Source: an uncultured Desulfovibrionaceae bacterium (GTDB lineage: Bacteria > Desulfobacterota > Desulfovibrionia > Desulfovibrionales > Desulfovibrionaceae). From it: a stretch of DNA of 64,000 bases. The stretch is taken from contig CAYJHD010000001.1 in assembly GCA_964370015.1 (NCBI GenBank), positions 16,884 through 80,883 of the forward strand, written 5' to 3'. The notes under the pieces were generated by a model. That model worked only from the letters and a program-made list of their open reading frames with translations, ran no database searches and was not told the DNA's origin. Shown here piece by piece: positions 1 to 27,430 of this stretch (positions are counted from its first letter, which is position 1; every line of letters begins with the position of its first letter). The position numbers and the translations under genes were made by a program.

Positions 1-794
1 TTATCTTTCTTAAGACTCGAAGGCTGAAATCCAAAAATTTCATACCAATCGTTGCCACACTCAGAAGCCAAAAGTTCTTGAATAAATGTAGCGTAGGAAA
101 CAGCCTGTAACATAGGTTTTGCTGTAATCGTGAAATCCTTTTTCAGCTCCATAATGCAAATAGTAGTTCCTCCACCTCGCCCTACCCTTGCTAAAATATC
201 AATTCCTCCGCCTGACCCTGCTGAGTATTTTAAATTTTTAGGATCTGACGCAGTAAAAGGCGTAGGCATTTGAAAACGGCAAATACCTGCAATTTTAACC
301 GGTTGAACACCGCATAACGCATCATTCTTTGACTTAGCATCAGTTTTTTCAAGTTCATCGAGTAAAAAAGATTCAAGCATATGCTCTTTTACACGTGGAA
401 ATTTTTCACAACTTTGAAAATGTTTCCTAAAGACTTTGGCTTCTTCGCTTAACCATAAAACTTTACCACGAGGAAAATCCTTTAGTGAGAAATATTTTTC
501 ATTTCCTTCGCTTTTAGTTACTTGCAAATAAATAGCATCATTTCCATAAACAATGTCTGCCACGTCTTGCCCACGAAATCTTAAATTAAAAGAATTCGCC
601 TTACCCTGCGCTTTCCCAACATTCATATACAAGTGCAAAGGAGCCCATTGATGAAAATTACTCTTTATTTTTTGCATTAGCCCAATATTTTCCTTAATTT
701 TTTGGGCATAATTAGCATACCGACCTTTCCATTCATCATTTTGCTGTAACCAGTTGCTTGCTACTTGCCATTGCTTGAAAAAATCAGAATTCAT
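1..794 (-). CDS. RecB/Cas4-like PD-(D/E)xK nuclease-domain protein, N-terminal 264 codons only (gene runs off the left edge)
   Basis: Absent from the ORF track. My own minus-strand translation from ATG 794-792 (GGAG at 804-801, directly after the upstream stop) stays open to base 1: MNSDFFKQWQ...HMLESFLLDELEK...GGIDILARVGRGGGTTICIMELKKDFTITAKPMLQAVSYATF. The order E / hhD / ExK / QxxxY matches RecB-family nuclease motifs. Confidence 0.6.
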   Translation of the reverse strand, partial: MNSDFFKQWQVASNWLQQNDEWKGRYANYAQKIKENIGLMQKIKSNFHQWAPLHLYMNVGKAQGKANSFNLRFRGQDVADIVYGNDAIYLQVTKSEGNEKYFSLKDFPRGKVLWLSEEAKVFRKHFQSCEKFPRVKEHMLESFLLDELEKTDAKSKNDALCGVQPVKIAGICRFQMPTPFTASDPKNLKYSAGSGGGIDILARVGRGGGTTICIMELKKDFTITAKPMLQAVSYATFIQELLASECGNDWYEIFGFQPSSLKKD

Positions 795-805
795 AATTCA
801 CTCCT

Positions 806-2065
806 TTATATTTCCATCCATTGACCATTAGCCACAGAAAACACAGTATCAAAGGTTGCCATATGCTCAGGCCAAGCTTCGCCATGCACCGGCACAAGCT
901 TAGCCCCTGTAAAGGCCGTAGCAATTTTTTGTAATATTTTCAAGGGGGCATGCCCACTCGTATGCATATGCTTAAAGCTACAAGGCGCTAAAAACTCTCT
1001 CTGAACTTTAGTACAATCCTGCTGCAGATATCCTCCCCACAAGGAAAAAATCCAGCTATCTTTTGACGTAGGAATAACGTTTTTTGCCGCAAAATCCCTA
1101 GCTAGAGAATCACGCACCACAATGACGCTTTTTTGCGCCTTAGCACTTTCCAAAGCCTCAGCGCCCAGAGCCACACGGTATTTTTTCAAATCTTCAATAT
1201 GCGGATCTTGCCCCATCCTTTTCAAATGGCGGAGCATACTTTTTGTGATAACCACGCGTAGATGCCCACCTTCCCAATGCGGCTGAGGAATACGCTCATG
1301 ATGCTGTAAAGTTCGTAAGGTGAGCATGGTGTATAAATCCACCACCAGCGTTCGCCCGCTTCGTTTACAAGCGCGGTATAAAGTCACCAATCTATCAATA
1401 TTACTAGAAGATGTGCTTATGAAAATGCGCCCTTGGCTTTCCGTAAATGCCTTCGCAAACTCATGCTCAAGCTCACTTTCCGTGGGAGTTGGCTTAGCGT
1501 GTACGCCTTGCTTTGGTAAATTAGTACCTTCCAGTAAAAGCACATCAGCCTTGGGAGGATGCGCCAAAAGATTTTCTGTTAAAAATGCCTTACGTCCATG
1601 CGCTCGAATATCTCCGGAATAAAAAAGGCTTTTTCCCTCCACCTCTATATGCAAAGCATAAGCATCAAAAGCCGAATGGTCCACCAGATACGGAGTAATG
1701 GTGAAAGGGCCTAAAGAAAAAGGGCGATTGTGTGAAAAATGCTTACATGGATGCTCTAAATGCTCTCCACCAGAAAGCAGAGAAAGACGCAGTAAGGCCT
1801 CCGTATCCTTACCACAATACACAGGCCACGTCTGCGGCAATTGTGATATCAAGCCACAATGATCCATATGCGCATGAGAAATAAACACCCCTGCCACAGG
1901 ACTATGCCTATCTAAAGATTCCGGCACTGGAGTGAGCACGCCGGAAGGAACATCCAAGGGACGTCCGGCATCCAGCAATATACGCTCCCCCGTGGAAGCC
2001 TTTACCTCTATGCACGAACCGCCAATGGTGTCCGCCCCCCTATGAATACATACTGAAACAGCCAT
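806..2065 (-). CDS. MBL-fold metallo-hydrolase of the beta-CASP nuclease type
   Basis: ORF track 806..2083; ATG 2065 preferred (AAGAGGAA 4 nt upstream). HxHxDH motif in ISHAHMDHCG, then VDHS, YSGD, LLLEGTN, and HTSGHA plus VPVHGE near the C-terminus. This is the layout of RNase J / CPSF73 / Artemis-type enzymes. Confidence 0.8.
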   Translation of the reverse strand: MAVSVCIHRGADTIGGSCIEVKASTGERILLDAGRPLDVPSGVLTPVPESLDRHSPVAGVFISHAHMDHCGLISQLPQTWPVYCGKDTEALLRLSLLSGGEHLEHPCKHFSHNRPFSLGPFTITPYLVDHSAFDAYALHIEVEGKSLFYSGDIRAHGRKAFLTENLLAHPPKADVLLLEGTNLPKQGVHAKPTPTESELEHEFAKAFTESQGRIFISTSSSNIDRLVTLYRACKRSGRTLVVDLYTMLTLRTLQHHERIPQPHWEGGHLRVVITKSMLRHLKRMGQDPHIEDLKKYRVALGAEALESAKAQKSVIVVRDSLARDFAAKNVIPTSKDSWIFSLWGGYLQQDCTKVQREFLAPCSFKHMHTSGHAPLKILQKIATAFTGAKLVPVHGEAWPEHMATFDTVFSVANGQWMEI

Positions 2066-2117
2066 ACATTCCTCTTTATACATGGTTAAAGAACACTTTT
2101 ACCTAAAGAAACATAGC

Positions 2118-2140
2118 ATCGTTTCAAAGTACGGAATGAT
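2118..2140. promoter_or_regulatory. Operator-like imperfect palindrome ATCGTTTC-N7-GGAATGAT, second copy of the WYL-gene operator
   Basis: 2117-2142 matches 8759-8784 at 22 of 26 positions in the same orientation. It lies 53-75 nt upstream of the beta-CASP ATG, in the divergent intergenic region. Confidence 0.45.
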
Positions 2141-2245
2141 AGCTAAAAAATTTATCTCCCTCCTCCTTAAAAATTGCTAAAAATCCTCTCCGTTCCGGCT
2201 TCTGGAATGACACCGTTATACAATTTTAAAAAAAGGAGTCATCCC

Positions 2246-2653
2246 ATGAAAATTTCCATGAAAAAAGCAATGTTGACAGCCCTGCTCTGCTTTATAAATA
2301 CACAAGCTCTAGCCCAAAGCCCCATGCAAGTACAAAAGACAAGTATGGCAGAAGTTAAAATTACCTCTTTACAAAATAACCTTGAAATCTATGCCATAAG
2401 TGTCAATAGGAATAATTGTATGCCCATACTTTCTTTGGATAGAGGGCAAGTTTTGAACTATGGAGATAGCTTCAACGCCATTGCCGTGGGAGAAAAAACC
2501 ACTAAAACCTATTTTTCCAATGAAGTAAGCAACGAAGCCCTGCACCAAATGAACCTCTTCATTAACATGGGTGTGAAGCAATATTGCACCGTCCTTGAAA
2601 TGACCATAGACAGCAGTGCTGGGCAATGGACTTTTTCTTGGGAAAACAAGTAA
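2246..2653 (+). CDS. Small secreted hypothetical protein
   Basis: ORF track 2174..2653; ATG 2246 preferred (AGGAG 2234-2238, 7 nt upstream). MKISMKKAMLTALLCFINTQALAQ looks like a Sec signal peptide. No recognisable domain. Confidence 0.55.
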   Translation: MKISMKKAMLTALLCFINTQALAQSPMQVQKTSMAEVKITSLQNNLEIYAISVNRNNCMPILSLDRGQVLNYGDSFNAIAVGEKTTKTYFSNEVSNEALHQMNLFINMGVKQYCTVLEMTIDSSAGQWTFSWENK

Positions 2654-2658
2654 AAAGC

Positions 2659-3873
2659 ATGAATAAAAATACACAACTGCTTTTCAAAGCCATACGTCAG
2701 GGGCGTCTTGAAAAAGTAAAAATTTTACTTATGAAAGACACAAATATAGAAGCGAGGCTTCCTAATGGATATACACCACTTCTTCATGCAATACGCTTTA
2801 AACAAGAAGAAATTGTTACTTTTTTACTTGGGAGCGATGCTTATATAGAAGCCAGAGAAAATCGTGAATATACCGCCCTGCTCTTGGCTGTAGAAAAAAA
2901 CATGCTCTCCATGGTGCAGTTGTTACTTGAACATGGCGCAGACGCTAATGCACGTAAATATTGTTATGACGGACACGATGAATGTGACCCAAGGCATTGG
3001 TCAGACTCTGCCCTCATCATAGCTGCAAAAAAGAATAATTACCCTATTGTTAAGCTTCTTTTGGAGCATGGGGCAGATGTGAATTTATGTGAAGAATGTG
3101 AGGCGGGAGCTGCTTTGCATTATACCAGTGATCCCCAGATAGTGCGTTTACTTATTGCTTATGGTGCTGATCTTGAAGCAGTGGCTGGCTGGCTTGGAAC
3201 GCCCTTAATGAGTGCTGCCTGTTGCCATAATTATGAAAAAGCAAAAATTCTTCTTGAGCACGGCGTAGATATCTATGCTGTGAATGGTGGAGAAGGAACT
3301 GCTGCTCATGTGGCAGCTAACAGTGGTTGCTTCTCTGTTCTTAAATTACTTTTGGATGCCCAGTATGACCCGCACTATGAAGTCTCACGTACCTTGAGCT
3401 TGCTATGGCATGGAAGTCTTGGCATTTCAGACAAGGACATTCATAAATTATTTAAATTACTATTAACATATGAATACAATGTAAATAAAAAATACAGAGG
3501 AACCCAGGATTTTATGAAGCTTTTGCATTGGCTTCCTCTAACGGTAGCAAAAGAAATTATTGCTTTAGGAGCTGATATTTATGCTGTAGACGATTATGGA
3601 AAAACAGCTTTTGGATATATAGCAAATCATAGCAGAGTAAAGAATGTAAAATATCTTTTTTCTTTAGGAATTAAGATGTCCAAAGCCGACGAAAAAAGCC
3701 TCTTTTTTTGCGTTGAACATGATCAGCTAGAGTTGCTACAAGTTTTTATAGAAAATGGTGCAAATATTCATGCTCTTAACGCGGAAGGTTGTAGCCTGGT
3801 GCAATACGCAAAAAAACTTGAACATGAAGAAATATATACTTATTTAGAAGAGCTTAAAATCTTAAAAGGTTAA
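2659..3873 (+). CDS. Ankyrin-repeat protein
   Basis: ORF track 2626..3873; ATG 2659 is the first Met after the upstream stop. Multiple ankyrin-type repeats, e.g. GYTPLLHAIRFKQEEIVTFLLGSDAYIEA, YTALLLAVEKNMLSMVQLLLEHGADANA, SALIIAAKKNNYPIVKLLLEHGADVN, GTPLMSAACCHNYEKAKILLEHGVDIYA. Confidence 0.85.
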   Translation: MNKNTQLLFKAIRQGRLEKVKILLMKDTNIEARLPNGYTPLLHAIRFKQEEIVTFLLGSDAYIEARENREYTALLLAVEKNMLSMVQLLLEHGADANARKYCYDGHDECDPRHWSDSALIIAAKKNNYPIVKLLLEHGADVNLCEECEAGAALHYTSDPQIVRLLIAYGADLEAVAGWLGTPLMSAACCHNYEKAKILLEHGVDIYAVNGGEGTAAHVAANSGCFSVLKLLLDAQYDPHYEVSRTLSLLWHGSLGISDKDIHKLFKLLLTYEYNVNKKYRGTQDFMKLLHWLPLTVAKEIIALGADIYAVDDYGKTAFGYIANHSRVKNVKYLFSLGIKMSKADEKSLFFCVEHDQLELLQVFIENGANIHALNAEGCSLVQYAKKLEHEEIYTYLEELKILKG

Positions 3874-3878
3874 ACAAA

Positions 3879-4133
3879 ATGAAGAAAATAGATTTTACTA
3901 CCGGAAGAAAAATTTCTTCACCTGATGTAAATATGACTTCCGCTGAGCAAACGCCAAGTGCTGAAGAATTTATCTTTGATGAAACTGACTTTGATTTGCC
4001 TGCCTTTCTTTCTCAACATACCTATGGCAATGAACAACCATTTCCACCTATTCAAAAATATCGTGGCCAAGTCTACGAAAAAAAGGCTTTTGCGGAAATG
4101 ATGCAGAAATATTTTAATAGGAATAAGGGGTGA
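3879..4133 (+). CDS. Hypothetical 84-aa protein
   Basis: ORF 5 nt after the ankyrin stop, same strand. No motif recognised and the RBS is weak. Confidence 0.35.
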   Translation: MKKIDFTTGRKISSPDVNMTSAEQTPSAEEFIFDETDFDLPAFLSQHTYGNEQPFPPIQKYRGQVYEKKAFAEMMQKYFNRNKG

Positions 4134-4229
4134 GTGAAATGAGTGCCCTTGTGTAGTTTCACATCATCCCATGAACAATTATATTGCTTTATTAATTGTT
4201 ACAAATAAGTCATCTAATTTTTAAGTCTC

Positions 4230-4266
4230 ATTTAATAACGTTTTATTTAATAATGTTTTATTTAAA
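4230..4266. repeat. 2.5 tandem copies of a 15-nt unit ATTTAATAAYGTTTT
   Basis: atttaataacgtttt / atttaataatgtttt / atttaaa read directly, in the convergent gap between 4133 and 4299. Confidence 0.6.
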
Positions 4267-4298
4267 CTGGGTGACATCACATGCACATAAGGCGTGGT

Positions 4299-6020
4299 TT
4301 ATTGGCGATGACTGCTTGCTAAAAGTTGGTGCATAGCTTCCCCATGCTGTTTAGCAAGGTTTTCATTCCAGACATTATTATTCTCTTCAGAAAGTTTAAA
4401 CATAAGTAATAATTTAATACTTTCGAGACTTTGCTCGTTTTTCAGTCTATCTTGTAGGCGTCCAAATTTTGTATTTATGGCATCATTACCTTGTGCAGAA
4501 TTGAAGCTAGCTGAAATCATAGCTAAGTTACCAAAGAAATGAACTTGGTCTCCAAATGAACCAGAAGATTGTGGATGCAAATGCTCAATGGAACGATTTT
4601 CCTTGAAAGAGTAATTTTTAATAGCTTTAAACTCATCTTTGTTAAATTTGAATTCATGCCTAGCAATATTTACCTTAATTGGCTCTTTTCCACTGCTCCA
4701 TTTTTTATCAACACATATTTCCCACAAAAGATAATCAAGCTTCCAAAACCAGTACCTTTCAATTTTTCCATAGCACATATCAACAAGTATTGGGAGGGGG
4801 CGATTATCAATTTCTTTAAGATGTTCGAGAGTTAAATCTCCTCCTTCTGACTTTTCATAAGCCTTCAGCACCCATTCTTGGCTTGCAAAAGAACTCACAC
4901 CAAGCATACTTTGATACTGTAATAATTTTCTTTTATTTATGTCTTCGTATTCTGATTCTTCACTATTGTCTTGTGATTTAAGATTAAAACCATTTTCTGT
5001 AATATAAATAATATTGCCATCTAACCATTTTCTGTACTTTTTCATTTTACTAATGAAATATTCTCCAAAAAAACACCTATTATCTATATTTTTTTTAAAA
5101 ATTTCTATAAGTTTATATTGATCCAAAGAAACCTTATCTCCTTTAAACAAAAAATCTGTATAAATTCTAAGAGCATGCAGGATAAAAGTAGACTCAGAAA
5201 CAATAGCTCGAGTTGTACTTTTTGGGCTTTTTTCAGTTGGCTCACTATACATGATATTTTCATCATCGCATTTTAATATATCTATAAAACTTTTTTTATC
5301 AGTGCATTGATTATTATTTTCAGAAATATTATCTTGAGAATATTTTTTTGAAAAATCTATAATCTTATTAAATTTAACTGCATGTTCTTGAAAATATTTC
5401 CCTTTTATAATGTCTTGAGGTTCTAACTGTCTTCCCGTAGCATTGATACGCTCAAAATGTCTATTTAGCTCATGAGGAGTATAGTTAGGATCAAGCTCTG
5501 AGCACAAAAATGTTGCTTGTGCTCGTACAAATGCAAAAAATTCACTTTTTTTGTTAATATTTTCAATAAAAGAATTAAAAGCATTAACAAACTTCCTAGT
5601 TTTCATATTTTTAATTTCATCAAATTTATTTTCAACAATATATTCTATATCTGTTGTGTCATGCTCTCTGCCTACATATTCCATTCGCAGTTCTTTATCA
5701 TTATTAAACAGAAAATCATCAAATTTTGGAGTTTCACCTTCCGCCAAGGCAGCAAAAAGAGTTAAAAATGTCAAACGTTGTTGCCCATCAACAATTTCCC
5801 AAACTTTCGCGTCTTCGCGCTTAACAATTGTTATTATACCTATATAGTAGGGGGTATCTTTCGCTTTTACCGACGCTTTATACAAATCGTCTAACAATTG
5901 ATTTATCTGCTTTTCATCCCATACAAAAAGACGTTGATAAATAGGAATACGATATCGTATACTCTTATTAATATCTTCAGACAATGACGCTATTGTATAT
6001 GAATTATTATTTTGGATCAT
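4299..6020 (-). CDS. DUF262 + DUF1524 (His-Me/HNH-like) protein, GmrSD/BrxU-like type IV restriction enzyme candidate
   Basis: N-terminal IPIYQRLFVWDEKQINQLLDDL and VDGQQRLTFLT (DUF262/ParB-like NTPase). C-terminal SIEHLHPQS ... GNLAMISASFNSAQGN (DUF1524-type nuclease). Very AT-rich coding sequence. Confidence 0.85.
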   Translation of the reverse strand: MIQNNNSYTIASLSEDINKSIRYRIPIYQRLFVWDEKQINQLLDDLYKASVKAKDTPYYIGIITIVKREDAKVWEIVDGQQRLTFLTLFAALAEGETPKFDDFLFNNDKELRMEYVGREHDTTDIEYIVENKFDEIKNMKTRKFVNAFNSFIENINKKSEFFAFVRAQATFLCSELDPNYTPHELNRHFERINATGRQLEPQDIIKGKYFQEHAVKFNKIIDFSKKYSQDNISENNNQCTDKKSFIDILKCDDENIMYSEPTEKSPKSTTRAIVSESTFILHALRIYTDFLFKGDKVSLDQYKLIEIFKKNIDNRCFFGEYFISKMKKYRKWLDGNIIYITENGFNLKSQDNSEESEYEDINKRKLLQYQSMLGVSSFASQEWVLKAYEKSEGGDLTLEHLKEIDNRPLPILVDMCYGKIERYWFWKLDYLLWEICVDKKWSSGKEPIKVNIARHEFKFNKDEFKAIKNYSFKENRSIEHLHPQSSGSFGDQVHFFGNLAMISASFNSAQGNDAINTKFGRLQDRLKNEQSLESIKLLLMFKLSEENNNVWNENLAKQHGEAMHQLLASSHRQ

Positions 6021-7335
6021 TTTTTGGCTCCAAATTTAATATTTTAGCATAATTTTCCACTGGTAAAATATGCTTATTAGGCAAGCATGTAAATAATTCG
6101 TGTAAACTCCTCAAGTAATTTTCTCGCACCCCCTCTGTATTTTCAGAAATATAACGATATTCCAATTTCAAACAGTGTACAAAGAGTACGCTTGGATTTG
6201 TAGAGGTATCAATAATTTGAACAAGATCTTGGAAAACATTTTGAGTATGAATAAAATCCTTCCGAACATAATTTTCATTACGTAATTCTGAAATTCTGTA
6301 AGCAATACAAAATAAAGCCTCAGAAAGATAATACTCACCAAATTTTAAATAAAATAAAAATGTAATAGCTTTAATAGCATTACAAAGAACACCATTACTA
6401 TGATTACGTAACTTTTTTTCTAGTTCTTTAATATCTTCAAAGTTTTCAAAAATATCTAATCTTAGCCTATGCTCATCAACAAATTCAAAAAAATCTATTC
6501 CACCATTAAAAATGGAATTATATTGCGTAAGAGTTGGTGCTACAGATATATTATCCATAATGCTATATTTTACAGAATAATGTTCAAATAGAAGGCGTCT
6601 TCCGTACTTATCTGGCTCAACATATGGCTTATCTTTGTAACTCCAATTACGCAATCTATACAGCATATAGTTAAGCAATTCTTCCTGTCTGTTTTCATCC
6701 ATTAAATTCCACTTACTCGCTATAAGACCAGATAAGTGATCAGGAACATAGCGTAAATGATGCGTTTTTAATAAATCATAGTCAGAAAGCTGCTTACCTG
6801 TTGCATTTGTAGCATTAAAAAATCTATACGCGAGATCTTCTGGCTCATCATTCGGAATAGTCACAAGGCAAACTTTAATTTCATCTAAAAAAAACTGTAA
6901 AACTTTGTCTTTTCCAAGAAACCACATTTCAATTGTTTTTAAAGCTCTAATAATATATCCTATATGCTCTTTTGATATATTTTCAGTTTCTGATATATCA
7001 CTTTGTAACAATGGTACACATTCATCCCCTTTCTCATTGCTAATGTAGATTAAAATTGAAAGAGTTATTAGTCTTTGTTGCCCATCAATAATGGAAAGTT
7101 CATCTTTTTCTCCCTGTTTTACAATAATAGTCCCCAGATGAAATGATGCGTTACTAGCATTTTTATGATTATAAATATCATCTAGCAAAGCAACAATATT
7201 TTCACTACGCCAACAATATCCTCGTTGATAGGCAGGAATACTAAGAGTTTTGAGAAGTAGCTTTTTTAATAATATGGTATCACAGGAAACTTGACTAGGA
7301 TTTGAGTTATTAGATAAAGAAATTTGATTTGACAT
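6007..7335 (-). CDS. DUF262 domain protein without recognisable nuclease domain
   Basis: ORF track 6007..7353; ATG 7335 preferred (GGAG 5 nt upstream). IPAYQRGYCWRSENIVALLDDI and IDGQQRLITLS. No HNH/DUF1524 motif seen downstream. 14-nt overlap with the next gene. Confidence 0.8.
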   Translation of the reverse strand: MSNQISLSNNSNPSQVSCDTILLKKLLLKTLSIPAYQRGYCWRSENIVALLDDIYNHKNASNASFHLGTIIVKQGEKDELSIIDGQQRLITLSILIYISNEKGDECVPLLQSDISETENISKEHIGYIIRALKTIEMWFLGKDKVLQFFLDEIKVCLVTIPNDEPEDLAYRFFNATNATGKQLSDYDLLKTHHLRYVPDHLSGLIASKWNLMDENRQEELLNYMLYRLRNWSYKDKPYVEPDKYGRRLLFEHYSVKYSIMDNISVAPTLTQYNSIFNGGIDFFEFVDEHRLRLDIFENFEDIKELEKKLRNHSNGVLCNAIKAITFLFYLKFGEYYLSEALFCIAYRISELRNENYVRKDFIHTQNVFQDLVQIIDTSTNPSVLFVHCLKLEYRYISENTEGVRENYLRSLHELFTCLPNKHILPVENYAKILNLEPKNDPK

Positions 7336-7367
7336 AGCCACTCCTAAAATCATAACAATAGAATGTA

Positions 7368-7661
7368 TTATCGTGGAAATTTTGGCCTATACAAAACGTC
7401 CGGTACTGTCAGCACCAAGCACATATTCACACCATCTCCATCCCAAGTAAGCCGCTCTCTGTGGCGTGCTTCCTCAAGTTCACGTTCCCTATGTGCTTTA
7501 CGCACGGCATCACTCAAGGACTCTACTCTAAGAGGATTTCTATAGGGGCAGGTCATAAAAGCTTCGTTTGAAACATATGCCCTTTGTTGTTTACGAAAAG
7601 CCTTATGTCCATTATTACCAGCGAGAAAAATCCCCATAAGGTTGCGCAATATTTTTAGCAC
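7368..7661 (-). CDS. Hypothetical 97-aa protein between the WYL regulator and the DUF262 genes
   Basis: GTG start at 7661 with a G-run immediately upstream. It lies 16 nt after the WYL gene stop. Arg/Glu-rich core RKAHRERELEEARHRER; no family recognised. Coding status unproven. Confidence 0.35.
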   Translation of the reverse strand: MLKILRNLMGIFLAGNNGHKAFRKQQRAYVSNEAFMTCPYRNPLRVESLSDAVRKAHRERELEEARHRERLTWDGDGVNMCLVLTVPDVLYRPKFPR

Positions 7662-7677
7662 AGTCCCCCCTTTTTCT

Positions 7678-8688
7678 TTAGTAGCTCTGTGCTAGCATAG
7701 TGACTTGTTTTTTCAGCTCATCCCGCAGCCAATGCGGTTCCAGCACCTTAGCTTTAGCCCCAAAGCTGAACACCCAAGACACAATTTCCGGTGGGCTTTG
7801 AGCGTCAAAATCTAACATCAACGAGCCATCATCTTGCACGGTCATACTTTGTCTATTGCTCCACACCCTATCGTAAATGTAGGCTGCCGTTTCTGCCGCA
7901 AAGAGGATGCGTACTCTAAAAGAATCCCCCTGCATAATGCCAAAGGGGCCTACCTTTGTACTCTCTTGAGCATAAGGCGGTTCTGAAATATGACTAGCAT
8001 CAAGCTCCGTCATCTGTACCTCTTGGCAACGTTGTAAATACAACGATAGTGCATTATCATATTTAGGTTGTGCAGGATGAGCCTCATCCACTTCCCAGCC
8101 ATGAAAAGAAAGACTCTCTCTAAAAGAAATAAGTCTCTTGGGCGCAAAGGCAAATGTTCTGGCAGGCTTGGAAGGGCTACGCTTATAGGTCACCATACAT
8201 ACTTTTTGCTTTTGCGTTGCTTGCAATAAGATGCTGTACTGCTTTTCATAAGACGCATAATCAATATAGCCCTTATGGAAGTTTTTGGCCGCTGCAGCAA
8301 AAGGAGAGAGCAAAGGAGACTCCGGTTTTTCTGCAGTTTGCGATGGGGCATCTCCTAAAAAAGCATTCATCCCTTTAGGCAGCATCTGCAAAAACAGATT
8401 CCGACAAAGATTGAGCTGCATAAGCTCCTTAACCCCAAGATTCAAATCGAGCATGGGCATGGGAGCAAAACGATGATAATGTTCCTTCCCCTTAACTAAA
8501 GGCGTATCCAGCTTGCCATATCCCGAAGCCTCTAATTGCAGTAAAAGACGTGATACTGTCTGCTTAGAGCATTCCAAAATGCGCGCTAGCTCCGTTAAAG
8601 ATGTATAGCTTTCCCCTTGCACCATGAAAAATGTGTACAGGGCTAAAAGCTTTTCACCGGGGCTTTTTTCAGATTTCTTCACTGGCAT
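7678..8688 (-). CDS. HTH-WYL-WCX transcriptional regulator (BrxR/CapW-like architecture)
   Basis: N-terminal wHTH SLTELARILECSKQTVSRLLLQLEASG. Central WYL-type segment VCMVTYKRSPSKPARTFAFAPKRLISFRESLSFHGW. C-terminal FRVRILFAAETAAYIYDRVW...GSLMLDF...WVFSFGAKAKVLEPHWLRDEL. RBS AGGAAGGA upstream of ATG 8688. Confidence 0.8.
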   Translation of the reverse strand: MPVKKSEKSPGEKLLALYTFFMVQGESYTSLTELARILECSKQTVSRLLLQLEASGYGKLDTPLVKGKEHYHRFAPMPMLDLNLGVKELMQLNLCRNLFLQMLPKGMNAFLGDAPSQTAEKPESPLLSPFAAAAKNFHKGYIDYASYEKQYSILLQATQKQKVCMVTYKRSPSKPARTFAFAPKRLISFRESLSFHGWEVDEAHPAQPKYDNALSLYLQRCQEVQMTELDASHISEPPYAQESTKVGPFGIMQGDSFRVRILFAAETAAYIYDRVWSNRQSMTVQDDGSLMLDFDAQSPPEIVSWVFSFGAKAKVLEPHWLRDELKKQVTMLAQSY

Positions 8689-8759
8689 ATTTTTTCCTTC
8701 CTATTGCATTACTAGGTAAAACCTTCTAATTTTTCGGCAGGGGTAAAATATATATAAAC

Positions 8760-8782
8760 ATCGTTCCAAAATACGGAACGAT
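8760..8782. promoter_or_regulatory. Perfect palindrome ATCGTTCC-N7-GGAACGAT, putative WYL-regulator operator
   Basis: Read directly. It lies 72-94 nt upstream of the WYL gene ATG and overlaps AT-rich promoter-like sequence (TATATATA). It is duplicated at 2117-2142. Confidence 0.5.
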
Positions 8783-8831
8783 AATGAAGAAAGTTCAACC
8801 GCTTTTTACTTAAGCTATCCTGAAAAACCAT

Positions 8832-8862
8832 AAAAGGCACTCCCATCACGAGAGTGCCTTTT
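8832..8862. terminator. Hairpin AAAAGGCACTC-N9-GAGTGCCTTTT with A/T runs on both sides
   Basis: Inverted repeat read directly, followed by TTTTGT on plus and by a T-run on minus. No gene ends immediately next to it, so its role is uncertain. Confidence 0.4.
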
Positions 8863-9082
8863 GTATGATTTCTTTTTTACTGAATAGCAAAAATGTATGG
8901 AAAAATTTATGTCATGCATCACGTAAAATTAACGTTTGGCATTCGTATGCTTTATTGCTAAAACATGACAAAAGTTGGAACTTGTGACATATTTATATTC
9001 TTTACACAAAACCTTAACAGTTCGAAAACGCATACTAAGCCCCTGTTCTCTTTCTTTAGTGAAAAACCAGAAATAAGAATGG

Positions 9083-9219
9083 GTGGCACAGAAGTGGCAC
9101 AACGACACTATGCCCTACGTGAGCATAAACGAAAAAATTTATCAAGAGCTTCACAACTCCCATTGATTCACGTCAGCTCACCTTATTTCATCTCCAAAAG
9201 TGGCACAGGAGTGGCACAA
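9083..9219. repeat. Two copies of GTGGCACAGRAGTGGCACAA (four GTGGCACA octamers)
   Basis: 9083-9102 and 9200-9219 differ at one base. They lie between the island and tRNA-Pro. Confidence 0.6.
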
Positions 9220-9230
9220 AACAGTACATA

Positions 9231-9267
9231 ACAGAAAAGGGACTTAAAGCAATTTGCTCTAAGTCCC
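9231..9267 (-). terminator. Rho-independent terminator downstream of tRNA-Pro
   Basis: Stem GGGACTTA (9239-9246) / TAAGTCCC (9260-9267), followed on the minus strand by TTTTCTGT. Confidence 0.55.
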
Positions 9268-9276
9268 TAAAATTTC

Positions 9277-9353
9277 TGGTCGGGATGAAAGGATTTGAAC
9301 CTTCGACCCCTTGAACCCCATTCAAGTGCGCTCCCAGGCTGCGCTACATCCCG
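9277..9353 (-). tRNA. tRNA-Pro, anticodon GGG, CCA encoded
   Basis: Manual cloverleaf: acceptor CGGGATG/CATCCCG, D stem GCGC/GCGC, anticodon stem CTTGA/TCAAG with loop ATGGGGT, T stem GAAGG/CCTTT, T loop TTCAAAT, discriminator A, CCA. 77 nt. Confidence 0.9.
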
Positions 9354-9690: not shown

Positions 9691-10629
9691 TTACAACAAA
9701 GAAAATTGCCTACGCATCACGCTATGGTTTGGACGTTGCGTGATAATGGCATCATCAGGTAACTGCCCCACCAGCAGCTGTGATGTAGGATCGTGCACAC
9801 GCACATTTCGCTTACCCCTTTCATCGCTGCTTAAAGCATAGCAATAAGAACAGCCATTGGCGCAAGAATTATACGTTCCAATTTCAATGCTTTCCACACA
9901 CTGACACTCAGGTCTTTGATGTTTATCGCGCGCAACATCTATGGAGCAACCCAGTATTTTCTCTATAATGTCTTTATCAATACAAGAAGAAGCTTGTACG
10001 CCATGGGCAGACAGGTCACTTTTTTCTGAGCACGTATGGAGTGTGAATCCGAACTCGCGCCCAATGGATGAAAAAGTTTCTGCAATGGCATTCATCATAT
10101 CATAAGAAACACTATACGCAGGTAATTTACCCAACCTATTTTGCATATTCTTATAAATATCCACAAAGCTTATGATACACCTATCGGTACATCCACTCAG
10201 ATGCCTTGCCATATATCTAAAGGCTTTTTCGTGATATTCCACAGTAAAAATACTATCCACCATGATGGGATCATAACGCCACACCATTCTATGCGCACCA
10301 AGTTGCTTACTCAGCTCTTGAAAAGCTTGTAAAAGTCGCACTTTATCGGGTAAATTTCTTTCTACGCTTTTATTATAGGGCGTTATGGTAAATTGAAAAT
10401 AATAAGGATAACCCAAACTATCTATGATGGGCAAGTATTGCAAAAAAGGAAGGGGATTTTTAGTCCAAAAAACAATGCAATCCACAGCTTCTCGCCGTAA
10501 ATCTACCCCATAATAACGCTGAGCATTATAAGGGTTTGGCACAAGAACATGACCTCTTTGCAAAGCATTTACAAACCACTGCCCATAATAGGACGGAATG
10601 TCCGTTCTTCTGCTGGCACTTAGTATCAT
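9691..10629 (-). CDS. DUF1848 family protein with C-terminal Cys cluster (possible Fe-S DNA-repair enzyme)
   Basis: N-terminus MILSASRRTDIPSYYGQWFVNALQRGHVLVPNPYN matches my memory of DUF1848. Cys cluster CQCVESIEIGTYNSCANGCSYCYA. Last gene of the umuDC-ogt-alkD operon. Confidence 0.7.
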   Translation of the reverse strand: MILSASRRTDIPSYYGQWFVNALQRGHVLVPNPYNAQRYYGVDLRREAVDCIVFWTKNPLPFLQYLPIIDSLGYPYYFQFTITPYNKSVERNLPDKVRLLQAFQELSKQLGAHRMVWRYDPIMVDSIFTVEYHEKAFRYMARHLSGCTDRCIISFVDIYKNMQNRLGKLPAYSVSYDMMNAIAETFSSIGREFGFTLHTCSEKSDLSAHGVQASSCIDKDIIEKILGCSIDVARDKHQRPECQCVESIEIGTYNSCANGCSYCYALSSDERGKRNVRVHDPTSQLLVGQLPDDAIITQRPNHSVMRRQFSLL

Positions 10630-10638
10630 AAATAGGTT

Positions 10639-11328
10639 CTATCTTCTCATGAGTTTAATACGTGCTTTGGTCTCAGCATCCACTTTTAACGATTCACGTA
10701 TTTTTTGTAACGATTTATTATACGTGAAATCGTCCAATCTATTTTTTTGCAAAAAAAGCAGAGTGCGTTCAGGAAAGGAGACAAAACACATGGACACAGC
10801 CCAAGCCACAGCCATTTTCACATAATAATCTTCATGTGTTATCTGATTAAACATCTCAAAAAGGCTCTCAAGGCACACCTCTTCTCTAAAGTACATCAAG
10901 CATAAAACCACAGCAAAGCGTATATCATAGGCCTGTGCAGATGCGGCATAAGGTTGCAAAAACTCCCAAAAAATTTCGGGATGTTTTTTTACTATTTTAA
11001 GCTCGGTGCAAAAAGAATCACACAAAGACCAATTGGTGATCTTAGGTACAAAAAAAGCCACATGAGGCAAAATAGTTTGCACATCCACCTTCATATTGCC
11101 AATGATAAGCCCTTTGAGCATGGTTTCTTCAAAGTAGATGTCGCTAGTATGATAAAGATATGCCTCTCCATCTTGCTTGGCAATGCGCTGCGCTATTTTG
11201 CGCAAAAGCGGTATGCGCACGCCCAACAGATTTTCACAGCCGGGAATGAGCGCCGCAGAAAATTTTTGATACTTGGGCTCAGCTAAAGCCAACAGTTCCT
11301 GACGTATGGTATTTTCTAAAGTATGCAT
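10639..11328 (-). CDS. DNA alkylation repair protein (AlkC/AlkD-like HEAT-repeat glycosylase family)
   Basis: 229 aa. LLALAEPKYQKFSAALIPGCENLLGVRIPLLRKIAQRIAK and a helical-repeat character typical of the DNA alkylation repair enzyme family. Confidence 0.75.
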   Translation of the reverse strand: MHTLENTIRQELLALAEPKYQKFSAALIPGCENLLGVRIPLLRKIAQRIAKQDGEAYLYHTSDIYFEETMLKGLIIGNMKVDVQTILPHVAFFVPKITNWSLCDSFCTELKIVKKHPEIFWEFLQPYAASAQAYDIRFAVVLCLMYFREEVCLESLFEMFNQITHEDYYVKMAVAWAVSMCFVSFPERTLLFLQKNRLDDFTYNKSLQKIRESLKVDAETKARIKLMRR

Positions 11329-11336
11329 ACAGCCCC

Positions 11337-11816
11337 CTACTTACAACGCGCTTCCAAAGTCAGTAAATACGCTTTCATTTCCACACCACTGGCATAGCCC
11401 ACCAATTTCCCGCTGGCCCCAATGACACGATGACAAGGCACAATAACACCTATGGGATTTTTATTATTGGCCATCCCCACGGCGCGACATGCTTTTTCAT
11501 TGCCAATGGCCACGGCTATATCTTTATAAGAGCGTGTTTCTCCATAGGGAATATCACATAGCGCCTTCCATACCTTTTGTTGGAACTCTGTTCCTTTACC
11601 GGCATAAGCAAAGGAAAAAACCTTCCTTTCTCCAGCAAAATACTCCAAAAGCTCAGCAAAGACAGCATCGGAAAAGGGGGATTTTTCTCCCATATCTTGC
11701 GTCTCTTGATCTTTTTGCAGAGTCTCTGACAATCTTTTAAAACGCGTTAGCACTTCACCTTCATAACACATTTCAAAAAAGCCAAACTCACAAAGATACA
11801 CAGCTCTTTTTTCCAT
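11337..11816 (-). CDS. ogt: Methylated-DNA--protein-cysteine methyltransferase
   Basis: Active-site PCHRV in IVPCHRVIGASGKLVGY, preceded by IPYGETRSYKDIA. Confidence 0.9.
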   Translation of the reverse strand: MEKRAVYLCEFGFFEMCYEGEVLTRFKRLSETLQKDQETQDMGEKSPFSDAVFAELLEYFAGERKVFSFAYAGKGTEFQQKVWKALCDIPYGETRSYKDIAVAIGNEKACRAVGMANNKNPIGVIVPCHRVIGASGKLVGYASGVEMKAYLLTLEARCK

Positions 11817-11825
11817 ACTATTCCT

Positions 11826-13217
11826 CTAACGACAAAAAGCTCTAGGGATGGCGTCCCAAGAGGTGGTAAATTTAGGAGAGCGGTATTTTTGCCGCATGCG
11901 CCAAGGTGCACTCACGCCTTCACTGGCCTCCACACCTTTTCCTAGGCCCTGCCCCGCGTATTGTAAGGTGTGCTGTCCATAGCGCGCGTTCACTCCATCC
12001 AGTGCTTGCATGAGCTTTTGAGCTCGCTTATTGGCCTGCTCTTGCCCTTGTGATGCCAGTGTTAGCAAAGACCCTTGCTGCGTATGGGCTGATCCTAAAT
12101 CAAAAAGCATAACTCCGGCCTTGGCGTAAATCACACCTTCTTTAAATAAAGCATCCAAGCCACGCATGGCCGTTTGTACCATGATTGTGGTATCATCTGT
12201 GGCATGGGCAAAACGCATTTGCAAGGTTTCATTATAAGGGTGTTCCCCTTCAATGCATCTATGCTTTGAGGCACGAATATGCACAGCCATGCCTCCCGCC
12301 AAAAGTTTTTCTCGGCGTAAGCGCTGCGCGGCATTGACAGTAAAGGTGGTCAGCGCCTCAGCAAGATGCCCCTTGGCATATACGCGTTCCCCAAAGGAGC
12401 GCGAAGAAACCAAGGTATGTCTATGGCTAGGGGCATTTTCTGCGTCAATGCAAGCTATTCCACGCAATTCCATGGCTGTGCGCAAGCCCGTCACCGTCAA
12501 TTTTTTTTGTATCCACGCATCGGGCATATTACGCAAAGCCAAGGCCGTATTCACACCCACCGCCGCAAGCTTTGCCGCTTGACGTCGCCCAATGCCCCAC
12601 ACTTCGCCCACGGGTATACGTGCCAGCAGAGCCTCTTGAGCCGCCGCTTCGACAGGGAATACATACACACCGTGCCCTGCTCCGTGCCCCATTGCTTTCT
12701 GCTGTTCTTTTTTTGCTAAGTGATTGGCAAGCTTAGCCAAGGTGCGCGTGGGGCCTATGCCCACCGACACCGCTATGCCCGTCCACTGCAAAACACGCTG
12801 ACGTATGAGCTGTGCAGCTTCTTGAGCTTGTTTTTGCAAGGGGCCTTCAAAGCGTAAAAAAGCTTCATCTATGGAATATTGCTCCATATGCGGTACCACG
12901 CCTTCCGTCACATCCATAACTCGCTGAGAGATATCACCATACAAAGTATAGTTGGAGGAAAACACCGCCACATTATGTCTTTTTAAAAAGGCACGCGCTT
13001 TAAATTCTGGTTCTGCCATGGGTATGCCTAAGGCTTTGGCCTCGGCGGAGCGCGCCACAATGCATCCATCATTATTGGAAAGCACCACTATGGGCCGCCC
13101 CTGTAAGTCCGGACGAAAAAGCCGCTCACAGGAAGCATAAAAATTATTGCAGTCCATGAGCCCCCAGAGCTGCCCTTGGCCCTGCTCACTGAGTAGCTTA
13201 GAGCTTATGGATGACAT
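11826..13217 (-). CDS. umuC: Y-family translesion DNA polymerase, UmuC-like
   Basis: MDCNNFYASCERLFRPDLQGRPIVVLSNNDGCIVARSAEAKALGI is near-identical in pattern to the E. coli UmuC N-terminus. The true start may be the internal Met at 13157. Confidence 0.9.
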   Translation of the reverse strand: MSSISSKLLSEQGQGQLWGLMDCNNFYASCERLFRPDLQGRPIVVLSNNDGCIVARSAEAKALGIPMAEPEFKARAFLKRHNVAVFSSNYTLYGDISQRVMDVTEGVVPHMEQYSIDEAFLRFEGPLQKQAQEAAQLIRQRVLQWTGIAVSVGIGPTRTLAKLANHLAKKEQQKAMGHGAGHGVYVFPVEAAAQEALLARIPVGEVWGIGRRQAAKLAAVGVNTALALRNMPDAWIQKKLTVTGLRTAMELRGIACIDAENAPSHRHTLVSSRSFGERVYAKGHLAEALTTFTVNAAQRLRREKLLAGGMAVHIRASKHRCIEGEHPYNETLQMRFAHATDDTTIMVQTAMRGLDALFKEGVIYAKAGVMLFDLGSAHTQQGSLLTLASQGQEQANKRAQKLMQALDGVNARYGQHTLQYAGQGLGKGVEASEGVSAPWRMRQKYRSPKFTTSWDAIPRAFCR

Positions 13218-13668
13218 AACTCACCACGCCCCATATGTGCACATGTTCGCGTTCGGTAATATCCACTTCGGGATAGTCGGGATTTTCCGGAAGTAGCCAC
13301 ACACGCCCTTGACGGCGCACCAAACGCTTGACCATAAGTTCTCCGTCCAATGCCGCTATGACCACGCGATTATGCCCGGCCTCCAGCGACCTATCAACAA
13401 TGAGCAAATCCCCATCATGAATGCCGGCATTGATCATGGATTGCCCCTCGGCACGCAAAAAAAACGTAGCCGCAGGATTACGCACCAAATGCGCATGCAA
13501 GTCCAACTTTTGCTCCACATAATCATCGGCCGGCGAAGGAAAGCCCGCCGCCACCGGTGTTAAATATAAGGGCAAACCTCGCTGCATGGATTCTTCTTCA
13601 CTACTCTGCCCCTCGAAGCGCAAACCATGTGCCAGCGGCAATGCATTTTCGTCAAAACAATTCTTCAT
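13198..13668 (-). CDS. umuD: UmuD-like S24 self-cleaving peptidase (Pol V accessory subunit)
   Basis: VAAGFPSPADDYVEQKLDLHAHLVRNPAATFFLRAEGQSMINAGIHDGDLLIVD ... VKRL gives the Ala-Gly site and the Ser/Lys dyad context, as in E. coli UmuD. Confidence 0.85.
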   Translation of the reverse strand: MKNCFDENALPLAHGLRFEGQSSEEESMQRGLPLYLTPVAAGFPSPADDYVEQKLDLHAHLVRNPAATFFLRAEGQSMINAGIHDGDLLIVDRSLEAGHNRVVIAALDGELMVKRLVRRQGRVWLLPENPDYPEVDITEREHVHIWGVVSYVIHKL

Positions 13669-24620: not shown

Positions 24621-25326
24621 TATGGATATATCACAACAAAATACGCATACACTCTATATTATGGGTAACGCCTATACCGTTCCTGCCGGATTTACCATCA
24701 TGACCAGCATGGAGTATGCTGGCTTTCAACTTACACGCGGGTGCGGCTGTCGCGGTGCTGTCTGTGGAGCTTGTGCTGTAATATATCGAGTGGGCATAGA
24801 AAAACACTGGCATGTGGGATTGGCCTGTCAAACCCTCACGCAAGATCACATGAACTTTCTTTTTCTTCCTCACCATCAAGGGAAACAACCTATCTATCAA
24901 GCTCATACAAGTCCATGTACCGCTGAATTTATTGAAACTCTTTATCCTCAGCTATCACAATGCATCCATTGCAATACCTGCACAAAGTCCTGCCCCATGA
25001 ACCTTAAAGTTCTAGGGTATATCACTGCACTTCGACAAAATGACTTTGAGAAAGTGCGTAAACTTTCCATGGAATGTATACTTTGTGGCATATGCGCCAT
25101 GCGTTGCCCACGTGAAATATCCCCTTTTGCCATGGCTCTTATGGCGCGGCGCCTCTACACTATTAAAACCCTACAGCACACCAAAAATTTTACTCAAGGA
25201 CTCAACCAAGCCCAACAAAACCATTGGCAGCCTAAAATTAGTGCATTCAAAAACATGAACAAACAAGAACTCATTAATCAATATCAGCTCTTTCAAGCCA
25301 CTAAAGGCGCTGGGGTAAATGAATAA
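24610..25326 (+). CDS. SdhB/FrdB-like iron-sulfur protein
   Basis: ORF track 24571; ATG 24610 overlaps the upstream stop region. GCGCRGAVCGACAV (2Fe-2S-like), CIHCNTCTKSCP and CILCGICAMRCP (Cys clusters). Confidence 0.75.
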   Translation: MSTNMDISQQNTHTLYIMGNAYTVPAGFTIMTSMEYAGFQLTRGCGCRGAVCGACAVIYRVGIEKHWHVGLACQTLTQDHMNFLFLPHHQGKQPIYQAHTSPCTAEFIETLYPQLSQCIHCNTCTKSCPMNLKVLGYITALRQNDFEKVRKLSMECILCGICAMRCPREISPFAMALMARRLYTIKTLQHTKNFTQGLNQAQQNHWQPKISAFKNMNKQELINQYQLFQATKGAGVNE

Positions 25327-25753
25327 TATGAAAATATATAACAGCCCACTGTAAACAATCGATTTGAGACAGGCTTTTCAAAAATAGTAAGATGTTAGAA
25401 AGTGAAAAGGAGCACAATATACGTTACTTTAGAGACGCATAAACAGTTTGGCGCAGATTGCTGTTTTCAGCAATCTGATAATGGAGAGCTTCCTTTGGCT
25501 AGACACCACAAACAAGCGCAAATCACGCAACAGCTTCACCATGAGAGCTTGACATACGCTTCACCATGTTTAGTTTATTTGTACCGAGTATATTCTATTA
25601 CGGGCATCTCCTCTATTGTAGCCTCGCAATTCGCGGGTTTTGCTTCTTGCTCCTCTATCAATAGCCTCACATAGTTTATATACACATACGTGTACTCTTC
25701 AGTTTTGTGAAATATGTCTTCGACTCCTAAGTGTGTGAAAAGAGGATTTCATT

Positions 25754-26566
25754 ATGGCTTGTATAGTATTACACAGACCCACCCCAGGAGAAGTTGTCTT
25801 TATAGAACCTAAAAAAGACGATACTTTTGCCTTGAATTTTGATTCCGATGAAGCCCAAATAGAACGTCACGAACAAGACCTTGTACTTACCTTTGATCAT
25901 GACGCACAGCTATCCGGCATTGTAATGACAAATTTTTATCAAACTTATACCCTTGACTCCATGCCAGAAAATATTTTCGACTTTATTCTTGCAAAAATGA
26001 ATGACAGCAGCATCTGTGATATGTTCTATGAAGAAAACCCTGTACAATTTTTTTTCCCACCAACATTTGAATTTCATGAAAAAAAATTTTCGTCATTTGA
26101 GCATTGCGAGGAAAATGTATTTTTACACACAAACACCCCCCGCAATCAAAATTTTGAGAGCAGTTTTGCTCATATTTCACAGAACAGTGAAAGCAACACT
26201 ATCGATCAAGTTTACTTTACGGATATTATTATTGAAAATGTGCTTGCCATGGAGGGTGAAGAAGGTATAGACATTTTACTAGCAAGTGTTGACAGCTTGC
26301 CTCAAGTAAAAAGTCTTCTAGAACAAGGCACTTTTGAAAATATCAACACTGCAGAGCTTATAGTTCTTGCAGATAACATCGGCGGTACTACCGTGAACGA
26401 GGTTCTCACAAATCTTAACCTCGTTAGAAATGGTACGGAATTAAAGCAAGGAGAAGGTAGCACATGGACAGACACACTACACTCCAATGTAGTCGGCTAC
26501 CAAGCCTACACCAATAGTCAGGACATTACCATTTTAATAAAATCTAATCTGCTCATACACAGCTAG
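25754..26566 (+). CDS. Acidic hypothetical protein, no signal peptide
   Basis: 270-aa ORF followed by a strong terminator. N-terminal VVFIEPKKDDTFALNFDSDEAQIERHEQDLVLTFDHDAQLSGIVMTNFY is reminiscent of repeat-flanking modules in secreted RTX-type proteins (weak). Confidence 0.5.
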   Translation: MACIVLHRPTPGEVVFIEPKKDDTFALNFDSDEAQIERHEQDLVLTFDHDAQLSGIVMTNFYQTYTLDSMPENIFDFILAKMNDSSICDMFYEENPVQFFFPPTFEFHEKKFSSFEHCEENVFLHTNTPRNQNFESSFAHISQNSESNTIDQVYFTDIIIENVLAMEGEEGIDILLASVDSLPQVKSLLEQGTFENINTAELIVLADNIGGTTVNEVLTNLNLVRNGTELKQGEGSTWTDTLHSNVVGYQAYTNSQDITILIKSNLLIHS

Positions 26567-26586
26567 TCCTCACCTTGCTTTTCCCT

Positions 26587-26875: not shown

Positions 26876-27430
<555 letters not shown>

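Follow-up and report, generated by a model that had tools for sequence, protein, structure and literature searches.

TgvAB is a two-protein type IV restriction system of the GmrSD family that was described in 2024 from VPI-2 of Vibrio cholerae (VC1767/VC1766) and restricts phages with glucosylated hydroxymethylcytosine (PMC11411939; bioRxiv 10.1101/2024.04.05.588314). In V. cholerae, TgvA carries DUF262 only, TgvB combines DUF262 with a DUF1524 His-Me nuclease, and the two open reading frames (ORFs) overlap by 8 bp (PMC11411939; bioRxiv 10.1101/2024.04.05.588314). The system needs both proteins, the DGQQR motifs in both and residues H571 and N602 of TgvB (PMC11411939; bioRxiv 10.1101/2024.04.05.588314), these two being the residues mutated in the V. 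cholerae protein (PMC11411939). Stand-alone tgvAB is about 17 times commoner than the five-gene operon (PMC11411939). Regulators of the BrxR family co-localise with type IV enzymes and with CRISPR-Cas (PMC9122601), and sensing of single-stranded DNA (ssDNA) has been reported for DriD, CapW and PafBC (PMC10853764, PMC11662680, PMC11804915). Here, we analyse a 64-kb stretch of DNA from an uncultured Desulfovibrionaceae bacterium (contig CAYJHD010000001.1), the whole of which we call the window, and focus on its positions 1-9276, where a WYL-domain regulator precedes two DUF262 genes that resemble tgvAB. Our best explanation, which we consider likely, is that 1-9276 is a mosaic accessory stretch of three independent units, A, B and C, and that the DUF262 gene pair in unit A is of the TgvAB type, a system of a known kind whose regulatory and genomic context is new.

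Genes were taken from the ORF listing and translation, tRNA genes were placed with ARAGORN and Rfam, and the proteins of 1-9276 were scanned against Pfam, PADLOC 2.0.0 and NCBIfam. These sources recovered all features that an earlier note had described from the sequence, at the same or very close coordinates, and its gene calls and domain assignments proved correct. As that note had stated, the stretch is accessory and rich in nucleases, and the three libraries found no housekeeping family in it. The genes form three transcription units of differing orientations. Unit A contains the following elements.

4299-6020, minus strand: TgvB-like gene of the GmrSD family, with a DUF262 NTPase/sensor domain and a DUF1524 His-Me finger nuclease.
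6007-7335, minus strand: TgvA-like gene with DUF262 and DUF7834, without a nuclease domain.
7368-7661, minus strand: 97-amino-acid (aa) orphan ORF, probably the leader and 5' stub of a displaced cargo gene.
7678-8688, minus strand: winged helix-turn-helix (wHTH)-WYL-WCX regulator, first gene of the unit (WCX 3.9e-17, several weak HTH models, PADLOC WYL 5e-17).
8760-8782: perfect inverted repeat ATCGTTCC-N7-GGAACGAT, 72 bp upstream of the regulator start codon.

The two DUF262 ORFs lie on one strand with tgvA upstream and overlap by 14 bp, and their translation would be coupled. In Pfam, the TgvB-like protein matches GmrSD_N (1.6e-31) and GmrSD_C (5.6e-4), so that both domains of the DUF262+DUF1524 GmrSD-like protein proposed earlier are found, GmrSD_C at a score below threshold. 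Its N-terminal part also matches the PADLOC models HEC-06, SspE and mREase_IV, and a single-sequence search of the PDB with this protein returned nothing. The TgvA-like protein matches GmrSD_N (6e-30) and DUF7834 (6e-13) and has no GmrSD_C match in Pfam. It had been labelled a DUF262-only protein, which is right in that a nuclease domain is lacking and incomplete in that DUF7834 is present. The likely start of the gene is at 7335, with AGGAG in front, and the ORF is open to 7353; the annotated form of the protein (P0001) has 442 aa. Residues Q43-R44, D90-G-Q-Q-R94 and F179...N183 of the TgvA-like protein are invariant in the alignment, and the QR, DGQQR and FxxxN motifs are intact in both DUF262 proteins of the window.

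A protein search with 6007-7353 yielded several hundred relatives, almost all annotated as DUF262+DUF7834. By genome scan and phmmer comparison of the neighbouring genes, we assembled 80 genome loci with TgvA-like homologues. In 30 of these, drawn from many phyla, the gene directly after the DUF262+DUF7834 gene is a DUF262+DUF1524 gene on the same strand, and the ORFs usually overlap; hsd neighbours were detectable in just seven of the 30 sampled pairs. One of the loci, from Vibrio chanodichtyis (L018), consists of hsdM, hsdS, a 470-aa DUF262+DUF7834 gene, a 663-aa DUF262+DUF1524 gene and hsdR. Its TgvA and TgvB ORFs overlap by 8 bp and DUF7834 is found in its TgvA at 3.6e-42. Because this locus reproduces the five-gene layout of V. 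cholerae, DUF7834 is the C-terminal domain of TgvA; a literature search found no mention of this domain.

The pair of the window matches the V. chanodichtyis pair in BLASTP at 9e-25 (TgvA-like) and 8e-14 (TgvB-like). When the TgvB-like protein is aligned with the V. chanodichtyis orthologue, its residues H480, N498 and N507 pair with H571, N593 and N602. Closer relatives exist: the TgvB-like protein is 49% identical to TgvB of another locus (L177), and the nearest TgvAB pair (50-53% identical) lies in a contig stretch at 32.5% GC, adjoining bpMoxR/VWA genes, a large helicase and another WCX gene. Hence, the two DUF262 proteins, part of a combination that the earlier note had not placed in any named system, can be placed by their TgvAB architecture and their homology to the Vibrio pair embedded in a type I restriction-modification (R-M) operon. 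By homology, TgvA and TgvB would act jointly as a modification-dependent type IV restriction enzyme, whose DUF262 domains would bind and hydrolyse nucleotide and sense hypermodified DNA, which the TgvB nuclease (H480, N498, N507) would then cleave. We infer the target specificity from the described system in the same way.

The regulator at 7678-8688 lies on the same strand as the type IV restriction module and upstream of it, an arrangement on record for BrxR-family regulators (PMC9122601). Its HTH-WYL-WCX architecture is confirmed by the WCX, HTH and PADLOC WYL matches and by an AlphaFold model (predicted local distance difference test, pLDDT, 84) that shows a wHTH at the N-terminus together with a WYL beta-barrel and a WCX domain. 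A single-sequence search of the PDB with the regulator gave nothing. A profile of 43 homologues matched DriD (2.6e-12; PDB 8TP8, 7TZV and 9PFQ) and PafC (1.9e-7) in the PDB, and neither BrxR nor CapW was matched in this search even at E<=10. With the model, Foldseek retrieved DriD (3.5e-15), PafBC (9e-12), BrxR (2e-7) and CapW (5e-7), all four at probability 1.0. The description as BrxR-like thus holds for architecture and position and fails for the subfamily, the nearest solved relative being DriD. As DriD, CapW and PafBC all sense single-stranded DNA, ssDNA is the most likely input. The regulator probably senses ssDNA arising from infection or DNA damage and would alter transcription of the operon; we infer this ligand, and the sign of regulation, by analogy with these three proteins.

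The perfect inverted repeat at 8760-8782 is a candidate operator. It is weakly conserved in relatives, and a terminator-like hairpin is located just upstream of it at 8832-8862. A promoter scan was uninformative (34 sites compared with 31 expected). Between the upstream region of the regulator and tRNA-Pro, a 20-nt motif, GTGGCACARRAGTGGCACAA, occurs twice (9083-9102 and 9200-9219, 117 bp apart). Both copies fall within an 88-aa ORF, with a chance expectation of 0.04 matches, and each contains two TGGCAC units resembling the -24 element of sigma-54 promoters. The ORF itself is listed here with its neighbour.

8965-9231: ORF of 88 aa, probably spurious, without a family match.
9277-9353, minus strand: tRNA-Pro(GGG), its 3' end facing the regulator.

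Comparison with relatives shows what lies around the regulator when the TgvAB-like pair is absent or different. The closest homologues of the regulator are 56-62% identical and all come from uncultured genomes. In one of them (L174), the regulator (62% identical) is followed by a 220-aa gene and then by Mrr_cat. Convergent with these run an ankyrin gene, which shares 58% identity with that of the window, and an ORF that is 40% identical to the 159-aa ORF described below. A second locus (L175) contains a SpoU methylase, the regulator, a short stub, PDDEXK_4, a WCX fragment and Mrr_cat, and a third (L176) a SpoU methylase, the regulator and small ORFs. In the fourth (L173), two ankyrin genes and SNF2 come first, then a TgvAB-like pair, a 574-aa gene and the regulator, and type I-E cas genes follow. 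Beyond the cas operon, this last locus (1-20999) continues with genes for an integrase, a NikA-like protein and a relaxase; it is a defence island carried by a probable mobilisable element. In the window, the genes on the other side of the cassette are three ORFs on the plus strand.

2174-2653, plus strand: 159-aa ORF whose N-terminus resembles a signal peptide; the ORF at this position in L174 is 40% identical.
2626-3873, plus strand: ankyrin-repeat gene (Ank_2 1.7e-48), right-hand flank of the slot and convergent with the cargo.
3879-4133, plus strand: 84-aa ORF without a family match.

The ankyrin protein is 58% identical to that of L174 and 43% to that of L173. Judged from these loci, the regulator and the ankyrin gene are conserved flanks of a slot in which the restriction cargo varies, with Mrr or PDDEXK_4 cargo in relatives. 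The comparison shows cargo exchange at this slot. From their homologues at the same position, the ankyrin gene and the 159-aa, secreted-looking ORF are assigned to unit B as resident flank genes, the ankyrin gene being a bystander. For the 84-aa ORF, no homologue was found in L173-L177 and none in PHROGs. What had been called an ankyrin trio is a set of three plus-strand ORFs, with ankyrin repeats in the middle gene alone.

The junction between regulator and cargo carries a trace of such an exchange. The 97-aa ORF is separated from the regulator by 16 bp and from the TgvA-like gene by about 32 bp, and it has no homologue but itself among 1.84 billion representatives. Residues 75-94 of its translation match residues 27-46 of the 220-aa gene of L174. 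GC content drops from 0.44 to 0.30 at about position 7370. On the sequence evidence, the 97-aa ORF is thus probably an intergenic leader joined to the 5' stub of a cargo gene displaced by TgvAB. A low-GC TgvAB cassette would recently have replaced this earlier gene just past its first codons, with the junction near 7370, and would thereby have inherited the leader and the promoter controlled by the regulator. The idea that the ORF is a component of the system is not borne out by these data, which point to an orphan relic. It was also considered as a detached N-terminal domain of TgvA, and this was rejected, the ORF being an orphan whose conserved part matches the 5' end of another gene. A terminator-like hairpin at 7400-7418 (minus strand) falls inside this conserved stub, immediately before the TgvA-like gene begins, and L174 conserves the same stretch. 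This hairpin could serve as an attenuator between regulator and cargo. The junction scar shows how defence cargo swaps, and 'regulated slots' in defence hotspots can be modelled concretely on it.

Unit C lies at the left edge of the window and consists of two genes.

1-794, minus strand: gene 1, truncated by the window edge after 264 of its 322 codons.
806-2083 (alternative start at 2065, the second ATG), minus strand: beta-CASP metallo-beta-lactamase (MBL) hydrolase, with an 11-bp gap to the downstream gene 1.

The MBL protein matches Lactamase_B_2 (9e-16) and, weakly, RMMBL in Pfam, and the RNase J beta-CASP subfamily in NCBIfam (8e-18); in the PDB it matches RNase J (4e-16) and EF2904 (1e-12), and it has no match among the PADLOC 2.0.0 models. 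Among 39 family members, motifs 1-4 (D38, H70-A-H72-M-D74-H75, H136, D158) and the beta-CASP motifs A-C (E185 in LEGTN, H378 in SGHA, H400 in VHGE) are invariant. The earlier assignment of 806-2065 to the beta-CASP MBL enzymes is firmly supported by these motifs and by the RNase J matches.

Gene 1, full-length as P0121 (322 aa), has no match in Pfam, NCBIfam, PADLOC or PHROGs; the 159-aa, 84-aa, 97-aa and 88-aa ORFs likewise lack a family match in the first three. Its family comprises 76 clusters at E<=0.001 among 5.8 billion, none with a Pfam domain. In an alignment of 58 homologues, E137, E141, D199, E216 and K218 are invariant and Q230 and Y234 nearly so, a residue pattern that corresponds to the PD-(D/E)xK motif and the QxxxY motif of RecB/Cas4-type nucleases. 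The AlphaFold model is confident (pLDDT 93, predicted TM-score, pTM, 0.92). Foldseek matches of this model are weak. In the PDB they are mostly PD-(D/E)xK proteins including McrC, FokI, AddB, Exo5 and HamA (best E 0.075), and in BFVD they include phage PD-(D/E)XK proteins and UL24 proteins (best E 0.0075), all with TM-scores <=0.26. A profile of the family against the PDB gave noise only. Gene 1 had been described as a RecB-like PD-(D/E)xK protein; the motifs agree with this, the fold matches are weak and there is no sequence match in Pfam or the PDB. A RecB-like nuclease is plausible on the strength of the conserved residues.

The two genes are linked far beyond the window. Among 92 loci retrieved with gene-1 homologues, an MBL homologue is nearby in 65, within 600 bp in 57 and, of these, on the same strand in 53; the loci without an MBL gene are mostly truncated contigs. 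Both gene orders occur. This linkage across phyla with variable gene order suggests that the MBL gene and gene 1 are a functional pair. By raw counts of the two nearest genes on each side in 35 loci, WYL (6) and WCX (5) genes are the most frequent, ahead of YAcAr/SLOG (4), type I methylase (3), STAND NTPase (3) and DnaB (3) genes. One copy of the pair adjoins a Type ISP restriction enzyme, type I R-M genes flank solitary gene-1 homologues, and three MBL/gene-1 copies are on IMG/VR contigs. In one metagenomic locus (L150, 2814-5804), the MBL partner is fused to a C-terminal AAA ATPase domain, giving a protein of 997 aa. In Phascolarctobacterium (L086-L089, L136), gene 1, a 97-aa ORF, an MBL gene and a WYL gene stand beside DnaB and AAA_14/DUF4143 genes. 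This 97-aa ORF and this WYL gene were considered as homologues of those in the window and set aside, as phmmer detected neither.

Unit C is a separate, conserved two-nuclease module, most likely an accessory nuclease pair of a defence type or one engaged in conflict with mobile genetic elements. The unit is accessory and associated with conflict systems, and it may have a role in defence. If active, the PD-(D/E)xK endonuclease and the beta-CASP exo- or endonuclease would degrade nucleic acid together. We advance tentatively the more specific proposal that the pair might be an undescribed two-nuclease anti-phage or anti-plasmid system, placed in many genomes under an ssDNA-sensing WYL regulator. 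The pair is a small, widely distributed two-gene module with intact catalytic sites, a confident model for gene 1 and no annotation, which makes it a candidate defence module. If the proposal is true, the gene-1 family would be a new nuclease family without a close solved structure.

Several observations weigh against a mosaic of a TgvAB-type cassette and a defence-type nuclease pair. Identity to the V. chanodichtyis pair is just 27-31%, and GmrSD_C of the TgvB-like protein scores 20.2 bits, under the curated Pfam cut-off of 23. No hsd genes were found in 1-9276 by Pfam, PADLOC or NCBIfam, so the pair stands outside any type I R-M operon, and in none of the 30 sampled TgvAB loci was a regulator detectable with the regulator protein of the window. 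The TgvA-like protein is without an N-terminal domain of about 130 aa that its closest homologues possess, and its function could be altered or abolished. For unit C, there is no defence annotation in PADLOC, PHROGs or (for gene 1) Pfam, and the wider neighbourhoods of the pair contain mostly ordinary genes (four integrases, some R-M). Finally, a role in the damage response is possible because the nearest solved relative of the regulator, DriD, is a DNA-damage activator and because a repair cluster adjoins the tRNA.

The last point leads to the alternative that fares best. SNM1/Artemis-type beta-CASP enzymes process damaged DNA, and the regulator and the beta-CASP/PD-(D/E)xK pair might form a DNA-damage response comparable to the DriD and PafBC regulons, in which the nucleases would process damaged DNA rather than act against phages. 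DriD and PafBC are the nearest solved relatives of the regulator, WYL regulators are the commonest neighbour of the pair, and base-excision genes are near some homologues (an adenine glycosylase in L084, HhH-GPD in two loci). A cluster for alkylation repair and translesion synthesis also lies just over the tRNA: directly across tRNA-Pro, at 9691-13668, we observe DUF1848, an AlkD-like alkylation repair gene, ogt, umuC and umuD. However, what follows the regulator is a type IV restriction cassette in the window, and Mrr or PDDEXK cargo or type I-E cas genes in the case of its orthologues. Homologues of gene 1 are scarce, with 76 clusters among 5.8 billion, and their distribution over phyla is patchy. 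They occur at varied sites, some next to type I R-M or Type ISP genes or integrases and some on viral contigs. Moreover, ssDNA is sensed by defence regulators too, as by CapW (PMC11662680). We therefore regard a damage response as unlikely and retain the mosaic of independent units, in which unit C is accessory and tied to conflict systems.

A second alternative concerns the cassette itself, which might be decaying or inactive, with the N-terminal domain lost from TgvA and recombination scars at the locus. The nearest TgvA homologues have about 570 aa and the extra N-terminal domain, compared with 442 aa in the window, a relic ORF marks the cassette junction and the GmrSD_C score is under the cut-off. 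In contrast, both frames are intact and overlap as in functional tgvAB, and all DUF262 motifs and the His-Me catalytic residues are kept. Furthermore, TgvA of V. chanodichtyis (470 aa) likewise has no such N-terminal domain, which suggests that a short TgvA is a normal variant. In most close TgvA homologues (P0002-P0092), the N-terminal domain of about 130 aa has no Pfam model and appears in columns 1-200 of the alignment in at least two unrelated versions. Decay is hence quite improbable, and we continue to read the pair as an intact cassette of the TgvAB type.

It remains to consider the stretch as a whole. The earlier note had presented the two DUF262 proteins with the 97-aa ORF, the beta-CASP/RecB-like pair and the ankyrin trio as one combination that fits no named system, and had suggested insertion of an island at the tRNA. 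A single combination is not supported, because 30 genome loci carry the DUF262 pair and lack the other genes, because dozens of loci carry the MBL/gene-1 pair in the same way, and because the ankyrin gene and the regulator flank different cargo in relatives. The composition of 1-9276 is also heterogeneous, as GC content ranges from 0.30 to 0.46 across genes (TgvA-like gene 0.30, TgvB-like gene 0.31, gene 1 0.37, ankyrin gene 0.38, regulator 0.45, MBL gene 0.46), with a mean of 0.44 for the 64-kb window. Island insertion has no direct support within the window. No integrase family was found in 1-9276 by Pfam, PADLOC or NCBIfam, and the 3' end of tRNA-Pro (TGGTCGGGATGAAAGG..., 25 nt or 16 nt) has no second copy in the 64 kb at <=3 mismatches. 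No tRNA genes were found on the contigs of relatives that bear the regulator. A terminator-like hairpin follows tRNA-Pro at 9238-9268.

A reading of 1-9276 as a single integrative island, inserted at the tRNA-Pro 3' end and with genes that together make up one new multi-component defence system, would fit with the tRNA 3' end facing the block, with the lack of housekeeping families, with a GC content below the window mean over most of the block and with a left end beyond the window, where an integrase and an att repeat could sit, but it is very unlikely in view of three transcription units in different orientations, the heterogeneous composition (0.30 to 0.46 GC), the lack of an integrase or a tRNA 3'-end repeat within the window, the recurrence of each module elsewhere without the others, and relatives whose regulator and ankyrin genes flank other cargo on contigs where no tRNA gene was found.

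Elsewhere in the window, other low-GC patches (0.36-0.39) are present at 25001-28000, 39001-40000 and 51001-55000 and may be acquired segments. At 54534-63975, on the minus strand, five successive ORFs of 482, 197, 207, 1459 and 618 aa have no Pfam match at E<=1e-4; GC content in this part is 0.35-0.46.

How the three components of interest compare with described systems can now be stated. The MBL protein of unit C possesses motifs 1-4 and A-C in full, as do the beta-CASP nucleases RNase J, CPSF73, SNM1/Artemis and Cas14. Unlike RNase J, it is about 425 aa long and without the C-terminal domain of that enzyme. Literature searches for a named defence system that joins an MBL/beta-CASP enzyme to such a partner returned just Cas14 (type VII CRISPR) and HamMAB, which have different architectures, and yielded no paper on a pair of this kind. 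The MBL protein is always paired with a PD-(D/E)xK-motif protein of about 330 aa and has no helicase, protease or Cas partner.

The regulator resembles BrxR and CapW in its three-domain architecture, in lying upstream of defence genes that share its strand and in its ties to type IV restriction and CRISPR-Cas in the window and in relatives, but by sequence profile and fold it is closer to DriD and PafBC. DriD, an ssDNA-sensing WYL activator of Caulobacter crescentus, is its top match by both profile and structure, over the WYL and WCX domains. While DriD controls genes of the DNA-damage response, the regulator of the window stands at the start of a restriction cassette, and Mrr, PDDEXK and cas genes are the neighbours of its orthologues.

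The TgvB-like protein shares the DUF262-linker-DUF1524 layout of the single-chain GmrSD enzymes (Eco94GmrSD, BrxU, SspE and those modelled by PADLOC HEC-05 and HEC-06). These act alone, whereas the window encodes a second DUF262 protein without a nuclease domain, as in TgvAB, where both are required. With TgvAB, the pair has in common an upstream DUF262 gene that lacks a nuclease and carries DUF7834, as in the Vibrio orthologue embedded in a type I R-M operon, a downstream gene for DUF262 and a DUF1524 His-Me nuclease, overlapping ORFs and DGQQR in both proteins. The catalytic H and N residues line up with those essential in TgvB. It differs in that the overlap is 14 bp instead of 8 bp, and in that the pair is not placed between hsdS and hsdR but comes after a WYL regulator and a relic leader. 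The locus thus probably presents a TgvAB-type system outside a type I R-M operon and under a WYL regulator.

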